From positions 69,171 through 133,170 of the forward strand of contig JAITCH010000011.1 of assembly GCA_031283185.1 (NCBI GenBank): DNA of 64,000 bases. Reading direction: 5' to 3'. The position numbers were made by a program, and so were the translations under genes. This document shows positions 11,654 through 63,865 of this stretch, in pieces. Source of the stretch: Rickettsiales bacterium. Lineage in GTDB: Bacteria; Pseudomonadota; Alphaproteobacteria; Rs-D84. Position 1 is the first letter of the stretch. Each line of letters begins with the position of its first letter. The notes below the pieces were generated by a model. It made no database searches and was not told where the DNA came from. It saw only the letters and a list, made by a program, of their open reading frames with translations.

Positions 11654-11850
11654 CCACCAAACCTATTAATATCGTGCAAAAAAACAATAATAAATAAACT
11701 CAAAACCCGTTAGGGGAATCGCAACGCCGCGATAGGTCGTCCAATACCAAGGAAACCCGACCTGCGGTGGACTGGATGTCCATAATGTGTCGGGTTTCCG
11801 AAGTGTAGTGGGCGAAAATATCGCGGCGGGATGAAAAATTCCCCTTACGG
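11654..11850 (-). repeat. Family B ~160-bp structured intergenic element, copy in reverse orientation, with a variant core hairpin ggaaacccgac/gtcgggtttcc
   Basis: Reverse complement of the conserved flanks tttttcatcccgccgcg...ggtattgg...ttttttgcacgatat. Core stem sequence differs from other copies but stays paired. Confidence 0.65.
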
Positions 11851-16509: not shown

Positions 16510-16664
16510 CAAAAAACATAACCTCGGTTTTTCGTTTGTTGTCTATAACGGCTACTAACTTCGGAACGGCAGGGAAACTTATGGGCGGATAGCCCACCGC
16601 GCCCTGCCGTTCCTGGTTATTATCCGTTCTATCCTAACAAACGCGACCTCGTTAATGTTTTTTG
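16507..16664 (+). repeat. Family B structured intergenic element starting on the ftsI stop codon; core stem ggaacggcaggg/ccctgccgttcc
   Basis: tgacaaaaaacataa...ttcggaacggcagggaaacttatgggcggatagcccaccgcgccctgccgttcc...gttctatcctaacaaacgcg...ttttttg. Confidence 0.7.
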
Positions 16665-22398: not shown

Positions 22399-22658
22399 CC
22401 AAAAAACATAAGGTGCATTTTTGAGATATTTATTGGATGGCCTATCAAGCCGTTGCGATGTCGCTGGATTTTTTGAGATTATTATTATAATTAATATCGT
22501 GCAAAAAACATTAACGAGGTCGCGTTTGTTAGGATAGAACGGATAATAACCAGGAACGGCAGGGCGCGATGGGCTATCCGCCCATAAGTTTCCCTGCCGT
22601 TCCGAAGTTAGTAGCCGTTATAGACAACAAACGAAAAACCGAGGTTATGTTTTTTGGC
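22399..22658. repeat. Two family B elements in tandem: a core-less flank-only copy followed by a full inverted copy
   Basis: aaaaaacataaggtgcattttt...gttgcgatgtcgctggatttttt, then the reverse complement of the 16507-16664 element. Confidence 0.65.
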
Positions 22659-30465: not shown

Positions 30466-30541
30466 CGGGTCGGGTTTCCTTGGTATTGGACGGTCTATCA
30501 AGCCGTTGCGATGCCGCTGGATTTTTTGCACGATATTATTG
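30466..30541 (+). repeat. Family B element, 3' half only
   Basis: gtcgggtttccttggtattggacggtctatcaagccgttgcgatgccgctggattttttgcacgatattattg. Confidence 0.55.
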
Positions 30542-34507: not shown

Positions 34508-36841
34508 ATGGATTACAAAATAATAGAAAAGAAATGGCAGGATAAATGGTTTAACTCCGATGTCTTTACAGCGGGTCTGCCGGTTAATTCCAAAAAAGAA
34601 AAGAAATATGTGTTGGCGGAATTTCCATTCCCAAGCGGGGACGGGCTTCATTTGGGGCATATATTGAATTATTCAGGATTGGATGTTGTGGCGCGGTTTT
34701 GGAGGATGATGGGGCGCGATGTCCTGTTTCCATTCGGCTTTGATTCTATGGGTATAGCGGTTGAGAATTACGCCGTAAAAAATAATATGACGCCGCAGGC
34801 GGCACTTGCCAAGTCTTCGGCGAATGTTCTGCGGCAGGCCAAGGCGTTTGGGCTGAGTTATGATTATTCCAAAGTGTTGATGACTTCCGACCCGGAATAT
34901 GTGAAATGGACGCAATGGCAGTTTATTCAACTCTTTAAGTTGGGTCTATTATATAAAGCCCCATTGCCGATTAATTGGTGCCCTGCTTGCCGGACGAATT
35001 TAACCAATGAAGAATTGGATGAAAATGGCTGCTGCGACAGATGCCACGGGCCAATGGAAAAGAAGAATAAAGAGCAATGGAATTTTGCCATAACGAAATA
35101 TGCCGACCGCCTTGTGGATGACCTTGCGCTGGTGGACTTTCCAGAAAATGTGAAAGAAGCGCAAAGGAATTGGGTGGGTCGTTCCTATGGGGCAGAGATA
35201 GACTTTAATGCTTTCCGTGTTTATACAACGCGTCCTGATACTATATTTGGCGTGTCGTTCTGTGCTATATCGCCGGAACATAATTTGGTTGCGGAATGGT
35301 TGGCGGCGGGTCGCGTTAAGAATGCGGATGCGGTTAAAAAATATATAGCGGATGCCAAGGCGAAAACACTGATTGAACGCACCGATATTACGAAAGAGAA
35401 AACGGGCGTGAAGATTGAAGGGGTGGTTGCGACCAATCCATATAATAAAAAAGAAGTTCCGATTTTTGTTGCGGATTATGTCTTGGCAAATTACGCAACC
35501 GGCGCGATTATGGCAGTGCCGTCAGAGGACGAACGCGATAGGGAATTTGCAGAAAAATTCGGCATAGAAATTATAGAAGTAAAGGACGCGGATGGACGCG
35601 CAATAAACTCTGATTTTATGAATGGAATGGACAAAGATGCGGCGATAAAAAAAGCCATAGAAAATGGTGAAAAAGCCGGGTTTGCAAAGGCGGCAAAAAA
35701 GTATAAAATGACGGATTGGGGCTTTTCGCGCCAGATGTATTGGGGCGAGCCGATTCCGCTGGTATATTGCCCTGAACACGGATGGCAGCCGGTGCCGGAA
35801 AATGAATTGCCTTTGTTGCAGCCGGTTATGGATAATTTCAGACCGACCCCGGAAGGCGAATCGCCATTGGCGCGCGCTACTGATTGGGTCAAGGCGAAGT
35901 GTCCCGTATGTGGTGGCGCGGCAATGCGTGAAACGGATACTATGCCGCAATGGGCTGGTTCCTGCTGGTATTATATCCGTTTTATAGATCCGAAAAATGA
36001 CAAGGCTTTTGCCGACAAAGAATTGATAAAAAAATGGCTGCCGGTTGACCATTATAATGGCGGCTTTGAACATGTAACGCGCCATATGATCTATGCCCGT
36101 TTTTGGTATAAGGCATTATTTGATTTGGGTTTGGTGCCAAGCCCCGAGCCGTTTGCAAAGCGCACCATTAATGGATTGGTATTGGGCAAAGACGGATTTA
36201 AGATGTCTAAATCGCGCGGGAATGGAATTAACCCGGATGATTTGATTTCCGAGATGGGCGCAGACGCGGCGCGTTTATTCGTGCTATTCTTGGGTCCCTG
36301 GGATCATAATACCCTGCCGCTAGATGATGTGAAGACGGGCGTGAAAAGGTTCTTGTCAAAGGTAGAAGGTTTAGCCGCCCGCGTGCAAGATGTGGATGGT
36401 GATGTTGCGGCGCGGATGAAGTTTATAAAGGATATTACAGAACGGATTCCCGATATGCGGTTTAATACTTCGATTGCCAGAATGATGGAATATGCGAATG
36501 AATTGGGTAAAACGGACGCGGTGCCGCGTGCAGGTTATGAATCCCTGATAAAGGCTTTATCTATATTCGCGCCACATTTTGCCGAGGAAATCTGGGAAAA
36601 TCTAGGGCATAAGGACTTTATTGCATCCGCAGATTGGGATAAGTTTGACGCAGCGTTGGCAGAATCCGGCGATATAGTAGTCGTAGTATCAGTTAATGGA
36701 AAACGCCGCGCGGAAATAAATGTTAAGAAAGACGCAAAAGACATAGAAGAATTGGCGCGTGATGCGGCGTCCAAATTTATAAATGCGCCGGTTAAACGCG
36801 TGGTGGTGGTTCCGAATAAAATGGTGAATTTTGTCCTATGA
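34508..36841 (+). CDS. leuS: Leucine--tRNA ligase
   Basis: HIGH-region PFPSGDGLHLGHILNYSGLDVVARF; KMSKS FKMSKSRGNG; Zn-binding CPACRTN...CCDRCH; 777 aa; canonical leuS-lptE-holA order. Confidence 0.9.
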   Translation: MDYKIIEKKWQDKWFNSDVFTAGLPVNSKKEKKYVLAEFPFPSGDGLHLGHILNYSGLDVVARFWRMMGRDVLFPFGFDSMGIAVENYAVKNNMTPQAALAKSSANVLRQAKAFGLSYDYSKVLMTSDPEYVKWTQWQFIQLFKLGLLYKAPLPINWCPACRTNLTNEELDENGCCDRCHGPMEKKNKEQWNFAITKYADRLVDDLALVDFPENVKEAQRNWVGRSYGAEIDFNAFRVYTTRPDTIFGVSFCAISPEHNLVAEWLAAGRVKNADAVKKYIADAKAKTLIERTDITKEKTGVKIEGVVATNPYNKKEVPIFVADYVLANYATGAIMAVPSEDERDREFAEKFGIEIIEVKDADGRAINSDFMNGMDKDAAIKKAIENGEKAGFAKAAKKYKMTDWGFSRQMYWGEPIPLVYCPEHGWQPVPENELPLLQPVMDNFRPTPEGESPLARATDWVKAKCPVCGGAAMRETDTMPQWAGSCWYYIRFIDPKNDKAFADKELIKKWLPVDHYNGGFEHVTRHMIYARFWYKALFDLGLVPSPEPFAKRTINGLVLGKDGFKMSKSRGNGINPDDLISEMGADAARLFVLFLGPWDHNTLPLDDVKTGVKRFLSKVEGLAARVQDVDGDVAARMKFIKDITERIPDMRFNTSIARMMEYANELGKTDAVPRAGYESLIKALSIFAPHFAEEIWENLGHKDFIASADWDKFDAALAESGDIVVVVSVNGKRRAEINVKKDAKDIEELARDAASKFINAPVKRVVVVPNKMVNFVL

Positions 36842-39763: not shown

Positions 39764-39928
39764 CAAAAAACATAAGGTGCATTTTTCGTTTGCGGTCTAT
39801 ATCGCCCAGAATCAAGGAAAATGGGGGCACACTCATTGGCATACAGCCAACTTCACCCCCATTTTCCTTGATTCTGGGCGTTCTATCCTAGCAAACGCGA
39901 TGCACCTAATGTTTTTTGCACGATATTA
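39761..39928 (+). repeat. Family B element starting on the radC stop codon (core ggaaaatgggggcac...cccccattttcc); followed at 39929-39953 by a terminator-like aattcccctcc hairpin shared with argS
   Basis: tgacaaaaaacataaggtgcatttttcgtttgcgg...ttttttgcacgatattaaaattcccctccgatggagtggaatt. Confidence 0.65.
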
Positions 39929-51773: not shown

Positions 51774-51930
51774 CAAAAAATCCTAACTTTGTTTTTCATC
51801 CCGCCGCGATATTTCCGTCCACTACACTTCGGAAACCGGGGGCACACTCATTGGCATCCAGCCAACTTCGCCCCCGGCTTTCCTCGGTATTGGACGGCCT
51901 GGCGCGCCGCTCAGACAAAGTTGGATTTTT
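51771..51930 (+). repeat. Family B element starting on the mrdA stop codon (core ttcggaaaccggggg/cccccggctttcc)
   Basis: tgacaaaaaatcctaac...tttttcatcccgccgcg...ttcggaaaccgggggcacactcattggcatccagccaacttcgcccccggctttcctcggtattgg. Confidence 0.7.
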
Positions 51931-53135: not shown

Positions 53136-53310
53136 GACAAAAAACATAAGGACAATTTTTCATCCCGCCGCGTCATTTCCGTTCACTACACTTCGGAACG
53201 GCAGGGAAACTTATGGGCATCCAGCCCACCGCGCCCTGCCGTTCCTTGGTATTGAACGCAATGCCGCGCCGTTGCGATTGTCCTAATGTTTTTTGCGGGT
53301 TATTAAAACA
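53136..53310 (+). repeat. Family B element after rodA (core ggaacggcaggg/ccctgccgttcc), followed by a gtcattccc-gcgaaggc-gggaat hairpin shared with 8440
   Basis: atgacaaaaaacataaggacaatttttcatcccgccgcg...ttcggaacggcagggaaacttatgggcatccagcccaccgcgccctgccgttcc...ttttttgcgggttattaaaac. Confidence 0.7.
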
Positions 53311-59270: not shown

Positions 59271-59440
59271 TGACAAAAAATCCTAGCGACATTTTTCATC
59301 CCGCCGGGCTATAACGACCACTACCTTCGGAAACCGGGGGCACACTCATTGGTAGACACCAACATCGCCCCCGGCTTTCCTCGGTATTGATCGTTCTATC
59401 CTTGGCGTTGCGATGTCGCTGGATTTTTTGCAGGTTAATT
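59271..59440 (+). repeat. Family B element immediately after the ychF stop
   Basis: tgacaaaaaatcctagcgacatttttcatcccgccggg...ttcggaaaccgggggcacactcattggtagacaccaacatcgcccccggctttcc...gttgcgatgtcgctggattttttgcagg. Confidence 0.7.
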
Positions 59441-59758: not shown

Positions 59759-60127
59759 ATGGCAAGAGTAAAACGCGGAACATCCGTAAAAAAATCACAT
59801 AAGAAAACATTGGCGATGGCAAAAGGCTATATCGGCCGCCATCACTCAGATATAACAATCGCACGGGAAAAAGTCGAAAAGGCCGGGCAATACGCTTACC
59901 GCGACCGCAAGGTTAAAAAACGCGATTTCCGCAGTCTGTGGATTATCCGTATCAATGCCGCCGTCCGCGAAGCAGGCCTGTCGTATTCATTGTTTATGAA
60001 TGCGCTCAAAGGTTTGGGGATTGGGCTGGACCGCAAGGTCCTCGCCGAAATGGCATACGACAAAGATCCGTCGTTAAAAGAAATAATTGCCCGCGCAAAA
60101 CAATTCGTAGCAGCCAAAAAATCCTAA
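59759..60127 (+). CDS. rplT: 50S ribosomal protein L20
   Basis: [27 protein letters not shown]... bL20 consensus. Confidence 0.9.
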
Positions 60128-60285
60128 CGGCATTTTTCATCCCGCCGGTCTAAATCGTCCACTATCTTCGGAAACCGGGGGCACACTCATTGGCAGACGC
60201 CAACTTCGCCCCCGGCTTTCCTTGATATTGAACAATTTATCCTCGGCGTTGCGATGCCGTTGGATTTTTTGCACGATATTATTGG
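60121..60285 (+). repeat. Family B element after rplT; followed at 60290-60345 by family D hairpin copy 2
   Basis: cctaacggcatttttcatcccgccgg...ttcggaaaccgggggcacactcattggcagacgccaacttcgcccccggctttcc...gttgcgatgccgttggattttttgcacgatattattgg. Confidence 0.7.
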
Positions 60286-60413: not shown

Positions 60414-60788
60414 ATGAACTTTCTAAAACGACTATTTTTCGGAAGGAAAACCGATGCGCCTTTAATCATAACCGCTAAAATTATTTCAATCGTTAAACAC
60501 CATAACTCCGACCACCTTAATATCCTATCCGTCTATATCGGCACAAACGAACCACAACAAATCGTCTGCGGCGCGCCTAATGTCCGGGTCGGACTTGTCG
60601 GCGTCCTCGCCCGCCCGGGCGCGAAACTCCCCTGTTTTCCAGAGCCCCTAAGTATTCGTGAAATCCGCGGAATCAAATCTTTCGGTATGATGTGCAGCGA
60701 ACAAGAACTCGGAATCAGCGATAATCACGACGGAATAATTGAACTCCCCTCTAACAGCAAGATAGGTGTAAAATATGAACGATCTTAA
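60414..60788 (+). CDS. Stand-alone tRNA-binding (OB-fold, EMAP/Trbp111-like) domain protein corresponding exactly to the N-terminal tRNA-binding domain of PheT
   Basis: HHNSDHLNILSVYIG...QIVCGAPNVRVGL...KLPCFPEPLSIREIRGIKSFGMMCSEQELGISDNHDGIIEL aligns with E. coli PheT residues ~45-150 (HPNADKL...DIVCGAPNCRQGL...[29 protein letters not shown]). Overlaps the pheS start. Confidence 0.65.
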   Translation: MNFLKRLFFGRKTDAPLIITAKIISIVKHHNSDHLNILSVYIGTNEPQQIVCGAPNVRVGLVGVLARPGAKLPCFPEPLSIREIRGIKSFGMMCSEQELGISDNHDGIIELPSNSKIGVKYERS

Positions 60789-61764
60789 AAAAGAATTATC
60801 AGAAGTCAAAACCCCTCAGGATTTAGACAATATCAAATCCAAATGGCTGGGTAAAAAAAGCGAAATCCGCAATCGTATGGACGCGCTTAAAAATCTGCCC
60901 GATGAAGACCGCAAAACCGAGGGCGTCAAAATCAATAAAGATAAAGAAAAAATCGAACATCTAATCGAAGAAACCAAGGCGGATCTTACCAAAAAACTCA
61001 TCGATGCAAAACTTAACACCGATAATTTCGATATAACCCTTCCCGGCCACGGCGGAAATGTCGGCGCGCTTAACCCAGTCTCCATAATAGAACAAAAATG
61101 TATCGCCGCTATGCGCCGCCTTGGATTCCAAGTCGTAGTCGGCCCAGAAATTGAAACCGCAGAAAATTGCTTTGATTTGCTGGATGTCCCGCCGCACCAC
61201 CCTGCCCGCGACCTGCAAGATACCTTTTGGATTGAAGACCAAAAAATCCTACCGCGCACACACACAACCTCCGTCCAATCCCGCTTTATGTTATCCCTTA
61301 ATGGGGACGAAACCAAACTGCCAATCCGCATCGTTTCCCCGGGCAAGGCTTATCGCAACGAAGCCGTTGATGCCACCCACCTTGCGATATTCCATCAGTT
61401 CGAGGGGCTTTATGTCGGAGTGGATGTCAAAATGCCGGAACTGAAAGGCACATTGGAATTTATATTACGAGAGATTTACGGCGCGGAAATTAAAATCCGA
61501 TTCAAGCCTAAATTTTACCCATATACCGAACCATCAATCGGCGCGGATATTTTCGCCGATGGCAGATGGATAACAATAGTCGGCGCAGGTATGGTCAGCC
61601 CGAAAGTATTACAGAATTTCGGCTTTGACCCATCGCGCGTATCCGGCTTTGCATTCGGATTCGGCACTACGCGTTTGGCGAGTGAATTCTCGGGCGCAAC
61701 ACCCCGCGAATTATATGGAATGGATCTACGCGTTCATAAAAGGATAAAAAATGAAGAACAATAA
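60775..61764 (+). CDS. pheS: Phenylalanine--tRNA ligase alpha subunit
   Basis: Class II motifs (HPARD, FRxE, GxGxGxER-type C-terminus AFGFGTTRLA); 329 aa. Confidence 0.9.
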   Translation: MNDLKKELSEVKTPQDLDNIKSKWLGKKSEIRNRMDALKNLPDEDRKTEGVKINKDKEKIEHLIEETKADLTKKLIDAKLNTDNFDITLPGHGGNVGALNPVSIIEQKCIAAMRRLGFQVVVGPEIETAENCFDLLDVPPHHPARDLQDTFWIEDQKILPRTHTTSVQSRFMLSLNGDETKLPIRIVSPGKAYRNEAVDATHLAIFHQFEGLYVGVDVKMPELKGTLEFILREIYGAEIKIRFKPKFYPYTEPSIGADIFADGRWITIVGAGMVSPKVLQNFGFDPSRVSGFAFGFGTTRLASEFSGATPRELYGMDLRVHKRIKNEEQ

Positions 61765-61772
61765 ATCAAAAT

Positions 61773-61900
61773 CGGTCTATAACGACCACTACCTTCGGAA
61801 ACCGGGGGCACACTCATTGGCGGACGCCAACATCGCCCCCGGCTTTCCTGGGTATTGTTCGTTCTATCCTCGATTTTGCGATTGTTCTAACATTTTTTAA
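61773..61900 (+). repeat. Family B element after pheS, lacking part of the 5' flank
   Basis: cggtctataacgaccactaccttcggaaaccgggggcacactcattggcggacgccaacatcgcccccggctttcctgggtattg... Confidence 0.65.
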
Positions 61901-61920
61901 TTTATTAATAAGGATAAAAA

Positions 61921-63840
61921 ATGAAATTCTCTAAAAAAATTCTTGAAAAATTTATCAAACTCCCGGCCAACTGGGTTGATCTATTTGAGGACTTGGGACT
62001 TGAAATAAAATCCCGGGATGGCGATAACTTTACACTTGAACTACTCGCTAACCGCGGCGACCATTACTGCTATAACGGCATCGCCCGCGAAATCGCCGCG
62101 CGCCTTGGCATTCAGCACAATGCGCCCGATATATTACCCCTAAGCGAGGTTAAAAATACCGGCATTTTCGCAATAAAAACCGAGAAATGCCTCGCTTTCT
62201 CCCTAACAAAATTTGATATATCCCACGCGAAAAAATTTGACGCATCCGAAATGCTTTCGGCAAGTGGCGTCAACACCATTTCGCCCGCCGTGGACATAAC
62301 AAATGTTGTAATGCTTGAACTTGGCCAGCCCACACATATCTATGACGCAGATAAAATCAAGGGTCAAATAGTCATCCGCGAATCCGTTCGCGGCGAAAAA
62401 GCCGAATTGCTTTTCCACGAAGGCGAAACCGCGCTACCCACCGGCACAATGGTAATCGCAGACGAAGAAAAGATTTTATGTATCGCCGGCGTAATCGGAT
62501 GCCGCGCAGCCGAAGTAGATGAAAACACCACCAACATTTTATTCGAAGCCGCGTGTTTTGATCCCGTTTCCGTCCGTAAAACTGCCCGCGCCCTGGGTGT
62601 CTGCACAATTTCCAGCCAAATTTTCGAGCGCGGCGCGGACATCGCCAATGTCCGCATTGCACCACAACGCGCAAATAAACTCTATTACAGCATCGGCGTG
62701 AAGATATCAGGCGACATAAACATCATAACCCGGGAAATGCCCGGAAAACCTATTGAAATGAAGGGTGATTATGTGCGTGCAGCTCTCGGATTAAAAATAA
62801 CTGACGAGAAAATTGCCGAAATACTTGCCAGATATGGATTTTCGCAACACGGCAATACATACTCAGCCCCCTCCTGGCGCGTCTGGGACATCAAGAATTC
62901 ACCCGCGGATCTGGTCGAAGAACTCGCCCGCGGCATCGGATACAACAAAATCCCCTCCGTTTTACCGCCCGTCGTCCTTGGCGCAGCACCAACCGCCGTG
63001 GACGCCCGCAAAACCGCAATAGAAAACTATTTAATCAGCAACGGATTCTATGAAGTCTTGATTGATAATATGTATTCGCCGAAACATGCAGACTTATCCC
63101 CGGATTCCAAGCATATAAAAATCATAAATTCGATTGAGGGCGGCTATGCCTTTATGCGAAACAACGCGATTGTCCAGGCGGCCGAACTGGTTTATGAGAA
63201 TTTATGCGTCAAAAATGCGGCCATACGCGCATTTGAATGGGGCAAGATCTTCCCGACCGCAGGCGAAAAGAATGTTTTATGGGGCATTATGACCGATGCC
63301 GACCCGCTGGAACTAAAAGGAATCTTAAACGGCCTCGCCGCAACCCTAGACATATCAATAGAATTCCCACAAAATAGTGTCGGTGTTGCACCAAAGGTCG
63401 CAGGCTGGTTTGATTCTTCCGTTCAGAAATTATTATCCCCAAAACGGAATTCCAAAATAACGGCAAACGGCTCGCCCATCGGAATTTTTGGCGAACTGCA
63501 TCCGACATTGCTCGCCGCTTGGGACATCAAAGGGGCCCAGCCGGTTTATTTCGAGTTTGGGACAGACGCCCTACTCGCCCTGTCCCCACGCCAAGTTCAA
63601 TATACGCCGCCGTCCAAGACTCAATCGTCAGTGCGCGATTTGACCTTGGCTGTGCCGTATGGCACGACTGCGGCCGACACCACTGCCCGAATCCTTAAAA
63701 CCCCGGAAATAACCGCCGCGAAGATAACGGATGTATTTGATAAGCCGACCGAATCCGTCCGCAATATAACCTTTGCCCTGACCTTTACCGATGGCCTAAG
63801 CACAGATGAAATCAATAAAATTCTGGTAAGCATAAAATAA
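61921..63840 (+). CDS. pheT: Phenylalanine--tRNA ligase beta subunit lacking the N-terminal tRNA-binding domain (639 aa)
   Basis: The N-terminal 40 aa (MKFSKKILEKFIKLPANWVDLFEDLGLEI) match the PheT start, then run directly into the B3/4 domain (NRGDHYCYNGIAREIA, compare NRADCLGIIGVARDVA), skipping the ~105-aa tRNA-binding domain. B5, catalytic-like and FDX-ACB domains follow. Confidence 0.85.
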   Translation: MKFSKKILEKFIKLPANWVDLFEDLGLEIKSRDGDNFTLELLANRGDHYCYNGIAREIAARLGIQHNAPDILPLSEVKNTGIFAIKTEKCLAFSLTKFDISHAKKFDASEMLSASGVNTISPAVDITNVVMLELGQPTHIYDADKIKGQIVIRESVRGEKAELLFHEGETALPTGTMVIADEEKILCIAGVIGCRAAEVDENTTNILFEAACFDPVSVRKTARALGVCTISSQIFERGADIANVRIAPQRANKLYYSIGVKISGDINIITREMPGKPIEMKGDYVRAALGLKITDEKIAEILARYGFSQHGNTYSAPSWRVWDIKNSPADLVEELARGIGYNKIPSVLPPVVLGAAPTAVDARKTAIENYLISNGFYEVLIDNMYSPKHADLSPDSKHIKIINSIEGGYAFMRNNAIVQAAELVYENLCVKNAAIRAFEWGKIFPTAGEKNVLWGIMTDADPLELKGILNGLAATLDISIEFPQNSVGVAPKVAGWFDSSVQKLLSPKRNSKITANGSPIGIFGELHPTLLAAWDIKGAQPVYFEFGTDALLALSPRQVQYTPPSKTQSSVRDLTLAVPYGTTAADTTARILKTPEITAAKITDVFDKPTESVRNITFALTFTDGLSTDEINKILVSIK

Positions 63841-63865
63841 AAACGGCGCAACGCGCCGTTTTTGA
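63841..63865. terminator. Bidirectional rho-independent terminator (aaaaacggcgc-aac-gcgccgttttt)
   Basis: 8-bp GC-rich stem, 3-nt loop, A-run and T-run on either side; sits between pheT and a convergent partial ORF. Confidence 0.6.

Follow-up and report, generated by a model that had tools for sequence, protein, structure and literature searches.

Here, we analyzed a stretch of 64,000 nt (referred to as the window) from a metagenome-assembled genome (MAG) labelled Rickettsiales bacterium (GenBank assembly GCA_031283185.1, contig JAITCH010000011.1, positions 69,171 to 133,170 of the forward strand). In this window, the gene for the beta subunit of phenylalanyl-tRNA synthetase (PheRS), pheT, lacks the tRNA-binding OB-fold domain B2, and a domain of just this class is encoded by a separate open reading frame (ORF) of 124 aa that overlaps the start of pheS, the gene for the alpha subunit. 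The occurrence of a free B2 domain together with a B2-less pheT is real and far beyond chance. We consider it fairly probable that B2 is a portable module within a clade of uncultured alphaproteobacteria, several of which have small genomes, and that the window carries it as an inherited free gene of an rpmI-rplT-OB-pheS-pheT operon (OB standing for the free domain gene), where it is placed beside an old B2-less PheRS and acts in trans. The original prediction, made from the sequence of the window, had taken the free domain for a piece that was excised from the neighboring pheT by a repeat-mediated rearrangement. This interpretation is partly supported: the identity of the domain and its B2 origin hold, but not the proposed mechanism and timing, nor an exclusive link to PheRS.

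The free ORF (60414-60788, + strand, ATG start; annotated as LBB23_04460 in the MAG) encodes a B2-class OB-fold tRNA-binding domain, which is conserved and well folded in the structural model. The Pfam profile PF01588 (tRNA_bind) matches residues 18-119 with positions 1-95 of its 96 (E = 5.3e-18, 65.3 bits against a cut-off of 27), and the bacterial PheT model TIGR00472 (pheT_bact) matches with 105.8 bits over its B2 segment (positions 46-151 of 798). The top sequence matches in the PDB are B2 domains of proteobacterial PheRS-beta (6p8t with 75.8 bits; E. coli 3pco with 71 bits, residues 45-146). An AlphaFold2 model reached a pLDDT of 91.3, with low confidence for residues 1-17, and Foldseek superimposed it on B2 of E. 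coli PheRS-beta with a root-mean-square deviation of 1.1 Å, a TM score of 0.8 and 41% identity. Thus, Pfam, pheT_bact, PDB and Foldseek all point to B2, as had been predicted. The protein consists of a conserved basic leader (residues 1-17, MNFLKRLFFGRK...) and the OB domain (residues 18-122), and the alignments of the module show no variation in the B2 hallmark motifs QxVCGAPN and GMMCSxxELG. The leader has the consensus MNFLKKLFxKK; the idea of a Phe-codon attenuator was considered for it (MNFLKRLFF...), but only two Phe positions are kept across the leaders of the orthologues. The fold and motifs are the same as in canonical B2 (E. coli 3PCO/6OZ5, P. aeruginosa 4P71, T. thermophilus 1PYS). 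However, canonical B2 is an insertion in B1, whereas the window protein is a polypeptide of its own, which starts with a basic leader of 17 residues and stops after ...IGxKYERS. Hidden Markov model matches, motifs and fold therefore place it in the B2 subclass, but it lies outside of B1, on an ORF 5' of pheS, as is also the case in five relatives.

In contrast to canonical PheT, which carries B2, the PheT next to the free protein (61921-63840, + strand, 639 aa) does not. Pfam recognizes B3_4 (from residue 110), B5, CLM and, weakly, FDX-ACB, but no tRNA_bind domain, and the alignment with canonical PheT runs from about residue 154 onward. TIGR00472 scores 332.3 bits, under its equivalog cut-off of 402.65, and the full B1-B8 series is not present: B1, B3/4, B5, B6-7 and B8 are retained and only B2 is missing. 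In the AlphaFold2 model (pLDDT 89.6) the strands 28-33 and 36-40 are linked by a two-residue turn (residues 34-35), which is the exact site of the canonical B2 insertion, with B1 intact and the C-terminal B8 fold present. Foldseek matched the model lengthwise to bacterial PheRS beta (E = 1e-48). Hence, the claim that pheT lacks exactly this domain stands by Pfam, junction alignment and model, and the alignment with PheT orthologues maps the gap to one junction inside B1. The proposed direct jump to B3/4 does not stand, because the segment LELLANRGDHYCYNGIAREIA, on which it was based, aligns with the canonical TPNR(A/P)D... segment and is the second half of B1, and B3_4 begins only further downstream. 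Judged from these comparisons, the window PheT probably works like bacterial PheT but falls into a B2-less sub-lineage. The anticodon-binding B8 domain (63613-63837, residues 565-639) gave a Pfam E-value of only 0.0024, yet it has a confident fold in the model, and it is absent from the precomputed Pfam lists of most PheTs of the clade; a divergent B8 might make an extra tRNA-binding module useful. The partner pheS (60775-61764, + strand) matches TIGR00468 with 240 bits, above cut-off, and Pfam tRNA-synt_2d. The OB ORF overlaps it by 14 nt in a different frame.

The B2-less state is not peculiar to the window. All of the best 120 PheT matches (633-722 aa) are without PF01588, and they include proteins from MAGs labelled Gammaproteobacteria, Myxococcota, Thermoanaerobaculia and Acidobacteriota at 34-40% identity, whereas canonical PheTs show 21-30% identity to the window PheT. 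In a neighbour-joining tree the B2-less PheTs are monophyletic with 100% bootstrap. Outgroups were canonical PheTs of Gammaproteobacteria, Clostridia and Aquificaceae together with 16 of the full-length PheTs that have the most similar B2; source names were looked up for four of these 16, and all four are alphaproteobacterial. The partner PheS proteins, including that of the window, are likewise monophyletic with 100% bootstrap. The B2-less PheTs have one junction in common, which reads GLE(V/I)K, a short turn and LELLANRGDH. These data show that the B2-less PheRS is an old and widespread lineage, the beta subunit of which has been without B2 as far back as can be traced. In a distant member of this lineage (L006, 4056-8094; L numbers denote related loci), pheS-pheT immediately follows a gene for a cyclodipeptide synthase (CDPS), with ParB/RepB and recombinase genes close by. 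CDPS enzymes use aminoacyl-tRNAs, and the L006 pheST may represent an additional PheRS copy carried by a mobile or biosynthetic island.

The arrangement of the window recurs in at least five relatives. The order rpmI-rplT-OB-pheS-pheT was found in all readable contexts, namely L001, L002 (a short contig that ends before pheT), L003/L004, L005 and L038. The orthologous OB proteins (113-123 aa) share 52-62% identity with the window protein, and the pheT products, where readable, are 661-691 aa long, lack tRNA_bind and are 50-54% identical to the window PheT, the OB proteins of the compared operons reaching 55-62%. An overlap with the start of pheS is present in every relative having the OB gene; it measures 4 nt (ATGA) in these relatives. 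The conserved operon and the identities speak for vertical inheritance and purifying selection. No OB gene was found near pheST in the distant B2-less loci L006, L007, L036 and L037, nor in many close relatives that keep the synteny (L008-L012 and L039); these negatives cover about 6 kb around pheST where the contig reaches, and only about 0.2 kb upstream in L037. Between L003 and L039, DNA alignment shows the OB gene cleanly present versus absent, 3' of a conserved hairpin. Given the common junction and the loci without OB gene in distant as well as close relatives, the B2-less state of the window pheT did not arise together with the upstream ORF. The hairpin between rplT and the next gene (L003, 5918-5985; L039, 4741-4800) is terminator-like and shows compensating stem changes; it may be an attenuator of pheST expression. 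One of the loci without OB gene, L012, is a complete chromosome of 716,531 bp (OZ246409.1) that is titled "uncultured Muribaculaceae bacterium" but carries the alphaproteobacterial rpmI-rplT-pheS-pheT operon of the clade. The record is probably mislabelled, and it indicates that strongly reduced genomes exist within the clade.

In order to place the free domain, neighbour-joining trees over about 100 columns were used. In a tree of 89 domain sequences, the free proteins lie within the radiation of canonical B2 domains of the alphaproteobacterial PheT type. The window OB domain is 46-55% identical to alphaproteobacterial B2 domains, which are 43-70% identical among themselves, whereas the body of the window PheT is only 21-28% identical to alphaproteobacterial bodies, which share 25-58% among themselves. 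This modest discordance of identities agrees with the trees; the domain and the present PheT have different histories. In this reading, the free domain descends from a canonical B2 of the alphaproteobacterial PheT type and was not cut out of today's pheT, either recently or with the help of repeats. As a separate observation, two proteins from the search, P0295 (910 aa, a PheT) and P0241 (331 aa, a tRNA_bind domain alone), each contain two tRNA_bind stretches, which suggests that B2 can also be duplicated in tandem.

The closest relatives of the free domain are C-terminal domains fused to methionyl-tRNA synthetase (MetRS) in sister lineages. Such intact MetRS plus tRNA_bind proteins (661-683 aa) are very abundant, and at their C-terminal domain they share 47-52% identity with the window protein. 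A profile built from the free proteins scores these domains with 146 bits, compared to 131 bits for the best PheT B2. The free and the fused forms end at the same ...IGxEYK position, and their similarity includes part of the leader. The fused domain is of the B2 type, since it matches PheT 6p8t with 70.8 bits but the classical MetRS C-domain 1mkh only with E = 0.38. Free and fused domains cluster in 50-55% of neighbour-joining bootstraps, and the strict fused set is monophyletic with 86%, or 54% if P0008 and P0010 are counted in. Consequently, the module is not linked exclusively to PheRS. Four candidates for further free homologues were rejected: P0250 (L040) is a MetRS C-terminus that a scaffold gap of 10 N separates from the rest, P0298 (L041) comes from a canonical pheT with a frameshift on a long-read contig of 3.5x coverage, and P0008 and P0010 seem to be either fragments of MetRS fusions or the result of fission at the linker. 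L040, with its fused MetRS, belongs to the clade with OB-less operons: its MnmG shares 72-73% identity with the L009 and L012 proteins, and its FabG shares 82% with the FabG of L008.

Within the clade, a metagenome scan found MetRS with the domain at L043, L045, L048, L049, L052 and L053 and MetRS without it at L042, L044, L046, L050, L051, L059 and L108. The synteny metG-queH-fabD is common to all of these loci that are long enough to show flanks. More distant MetRS proteins (40-49% identity) are all without the domain. The MetRS homologue search was filled by one abundant subclade (at least 78% identity) and covered the MetRS of genomes outside of the OB-plus group. No metG was found in the window, where a weak match at 34508-36841 is a 777-aa protein, which we take to be a LeuRS from its sequence. 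At L042 (4001-5689) the MetRS ends with ...RIDDDRIAEMTAKYVKRKA, which resembles the fusion linker; the domain is missing and queH follows 48 nt on, which looks like a secondary loss of the fused domain. A third location of the module is seen at L050, the contig of which carries rplT, a canonical pheS, a canonical pheT of 768 aa with B2, and a plain metG. By RplT and MetRS, L050 is nested in the clade; its RplT is 77-87% identical to those of all clade members except the divergent window (64%). Two ORFs (199 and 255 aa) are inserted between metG and queH in this contig (L050, 2-7143), and the locus is rearranged, as the usual context, accB-rnpA ... metG-queH, is found at L051, which is closest to it by MetRS.

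Several histories could account for these three locations. As a less probable but serious alternative, a foreign B2-less pheST may have replaced the resident canonical pheST in the ancestor of the clade, and only the B2 piece of the old pheT may have survived as a gene, because the domain was still needed by the cell. In line with this, the OB domain is as similar to alphaproteobacterial B2 domains as those are mutually, with the PheRS body being the outlier; the B2 of L050 is among the most similar ones (up to 61% identity), and canonical and B2-less pheST share the slot after rplT in close relatives. However, the ORF is located upstream of pheS and not at the expected site of the old pheT, so that extra deletions would be needed. 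In addition, the nested position of L050 means that its canonical PheRS may be a re-acquisition, and a grouping of the module with L050-type B2 reached only 2-3% bootstrap.

Somewhat less probable, and in our view rather unlikely, is a fission of MetRS. Here, the ancestral MetRS would have carried a C-terminal B2-type domain, which in the termite-gut lineages left metG and moved in front of pheS, and the protein, although encoded in the pheST operon, would chiefly serve MetRS or act as a general cofactor. In the MetRS tree, the fused forms occupy three separate branches, among which plain forms are scattered. The plain MetRS of L042, which was recovered from the same metagenome as L004, an OB-plus operon, has a terminal stub ...AEMTAKYVKRKA that resembles the fused linker. 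There is also a weak alignment between the leader of the free protein and the MetRS linker, within which P0010 begins (MTEKYEAK), and the unrooted OB tree is compatible with such a rooting. On the other hand, if the domain tree is rooted with PheT B2 as outgroup, the free forms are basal and the fused forms derived. Furthermore, in a PheT tree rooted with distant B2-less PheTs, the OB-plus lineages (the window and P0125) are basal within the clade (76-83% support). That all more distant MetRS proteins are without the domain also argues against an ancestral fusion. From these rootings we infer that the free form is older and that the direction was from free to fused.

That recombination between repeats cut B2 out of the window's own pheT and re-encoded it 5' of pheS, a fairly recent fission whose products would reassemble a canonical-like PheRS, is very unlikely. 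At first sight much fits this idea: the ORF encodes exactly the domain that PheT misses, it is of the PheT-B2 type and overlaps pheS, and repeats flank rpmI-rplT and OB-pheS. Indeed, the predicted repeats around rplT and pheS are there, in the form of three 164-nt copies on the + strand, each right after a stop codon: copy a between ychF and rpmI (59274-59437), copy b between rplT and the OB gene (60115-60278), and copy c between pheS and pheT (61742-61905). The window holds about 11 copies of about 110-165 nt, with further ones at 11718-11839 (- strand), 16541-16635, 22531-22625 (- strand), 30471-30535, 39765-39925, 51774-51895 and 53139-53278. However, the repeat was found in none of 121 related loci, and L001, L002, L003/L004, L005 and L038 have the same gene order without it; their spacer between rplT and OB is 62-104 nt long, compared to 286 nt in the window. 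Thus, the repeats came later, and a repeat-mediated rearrangement as the origin of the arrangement is excluded. Further points against an excision are the junction shared with 35-40% identical PheTs from MAGs labelled as other phyla, which have no OB nearby, the close relatives with the same B2-less PheT but without the ORF, and the discordance of PheT body and OB in their similarity to canonical alphaproteobacterial PheT. The repeat folds as a single long and imperfect hairpin, in which 14 of the 32 pairs show compensatory changes between copies, it has no Rfam match, and it resembles Rickettsia palindromic elements or REP/MITE-like repeats. It looks like a lineage-specific palindromic dispersed element that was inserted later into the spacers of an existing arrangement.

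The prediction had further called the free protein Trbp111/CsaA-like, and of this description only the stand-alone state applies. No match to CsaA/Trbp111/YgjH was obtained at E < 0.01 among PDB sequences, and the fold matches are far weaker than that to PheT B2 (CsaA/Trbp111/YgjH, TM 0.56-0.65, 19-24% identity; Trbp111, MetRS C-domain and EMAPII, TM 0.45-0.65, 19-24% identity), so that an origin from this group was rejected. The refutation proposed with the prediction came true by half: relatives with a naturally B2-less PheT do exist, but the protein does not group with CsaA/YgjH. NCBIfam lists two families of free proteins that are related to the N-terminal domain of PheT, namely YtpR and the TyrS-associated TapR. 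Membership in TapR was rejected (NF045867, 39.9 bits against a cut-off of 120). The YtpR model NF045760 gives 108.6 bits, over its cut-off of 100, but matches only with positions 78-183 of 185; the two-part architecture of genuine YtpR is lacking, since its N-terminal domain of about 80 aa is absent and there is only the 17-aa leader. Moreover, NCBI labels N-terminal fragments of ordinary PheT as "YtpR family" too, and therefore the model does not separate YtpR from PheT B2. That an unrelated stand-alone CsaA/Trbp111/YgjH or YtpR protein was acquired next to pheS can hence be dismissed as highly improbable, even though the protein is free-standing and has the right size for Trbp111.

We therefore return to the reading in which B2 is a portable module that is free before pheS in the window, L001, L003/L004, L005 and L038, at the C-terminus of MetRS in L040 and the very abundant subclade, and inside canonical PheT in L050. 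The overlap of the OB stop with the pheS start suggests translational coupling, so that the domain would probably be made together with PheS. By analogy with related appended OB domains, the free protein might bind tRNA non-specifically and work in trans by raising the effective affinity with which PheRS, and perhaps further synthetases, bind tRNA; the basic N-terminal peptide MNFLKKLFxKK could, speculatively, serve as a tether. Such a role in trans is suggested because appended OB domains aid synthetases, YtpR serves GatB, and the module is fused to MetRS in sister lineages. It may also be, though we regard this as a tentative idea, that each genome of the clade keeps exactly one B2-type module, either in PheT, free beside PheS, or on MetRS. 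Several observations weigh against the portable-module reading. Key nodes of the domain tree have a bootstrap of only 28-55%, and the excess similarity of OB to canonical B2 is only about 1.2 standard deviations above the B2-versus-body trend. The linker stub of L042 means that at least one loss from MetRS occurred, and with the MetRS tree mixing fused and plain forms the direction could be fused-to-free. One module per genome is seen directly for L050 only and indirectly for L040, and the plain MetRS of L042 shares a metagenome with L004 but is not assignable to the genome of L004. Many B2-less PheRS lineages apparently manage without an OB gene beside pheST, and the module may thus be dispensable for PheRS. 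Finally, B2 is to our knowledge the one bacterial PheRS domain without an agreed function, and one that makes no contact with the tRNA in the solved complexes.

Comparable systems have been described. In bacteria of the candidate phyla radiation (CPR), many PheRS-beta proteins have no B2, some TyrRS carry B2 as an N-terminal fusion, and some LysRS have a B2-like domain at the C-terminus (PMC5370408, Mukai et al., 2017). The likeness consists in B2 being gone from PheRS-beta and attached to or associated with another synthetase, but the CPR is another phylum, and the portion of that report on which we draw mentions neither a free module overlapping pheS nor one at the MetRS C-terminus (PMC5370408). 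YtpR (B. subtilis; S. saprophyticus 3BU2) is also free-standing with a B2-like OB (56 bits and TM 0.8 versus the window protein), but it has an extra N-terminal domain of about 80 residues and another genomic context, and PheT B2 is a nearer match to the window protein than YtpR is. YtpR has been reported to bind GatB and thus serves a non-PheRS enzyme (bioRxiv 10.1101/2022.07.26.501605). In general, appended OB domains raise the tRNA affinity of synthetases in cis or trans, and the architecture of MetRS plus C-terminal OB is a classical one (PMC11286949). Trbp111/CsaA/YgjH, the classical MetRS C-domain and Arc1p/EMAPII belong to the same broad PF01588 OB superfamily and act as appended or trans-acting tRNA-binding cofactors; the Trbp111/CsaA/YgjH group is, however, a different OB subclass from the window protein, and the MetRS fusions of the clade use a B2-type domain instead of the classical MetRS C-domain. 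Thus, the general phenomenon of B2-less PheRS-beta and of B2 on other synthetases is already known, whereas the free form overlapping pheS in Alphaproteobacteria, the B2-type MetRS fusion and the three locations among close relatives are new.

As for the remaining features of the operon, its first gene is rpmI (ribosomal protein L35; 59535-59735, + strand), the syntenic genes of the relatives being Ribosomal_L35p, followed by rplT (ribosomal protein L20; 59759-60127, + strand), which is 60-69% identical to RplT of clade relatives. The predicted order of domain ORF, pheS and domain-less pheT downstream of these genes is that of the window and of the five relatives. At the operon end, a terminator-like hairpin (63838-63864, + strand) with a 12-pair stem followed by a T run was the top site of the scan. 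An Rfam search of the operon gave no match. In the NCBI numbering, two accessions fall between the OB protein MDR2685995 and PheT MDR2685998, one of which would be pheS; the second implies an extra annotated gene, probably the 49-aa ORF at 61751-61900, which lies wholly within repeat copy c and is likely spurious.

For annotation, the analysis calls for caution, as the labels "YtpR family" and "partial PheT" are applied indiscriminately to such proteins. In the clade, the classical architecture of MetRS plus a C-terminal tRNA-binding OB domain appears to have been re-invented from a different OB subclass. If each genome does keep one B2-type module, B2 would do a synthetase-independent tRNA-handling job that is preserved by selection wherever the domain is attached, and the clade would represent a natural domain-swap experiment. 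Close relatives that have B2 inside PheT, free, or on MetRS, together with the wider B2-less lineage, make the function of B2 and its need for covalent attachment testable.

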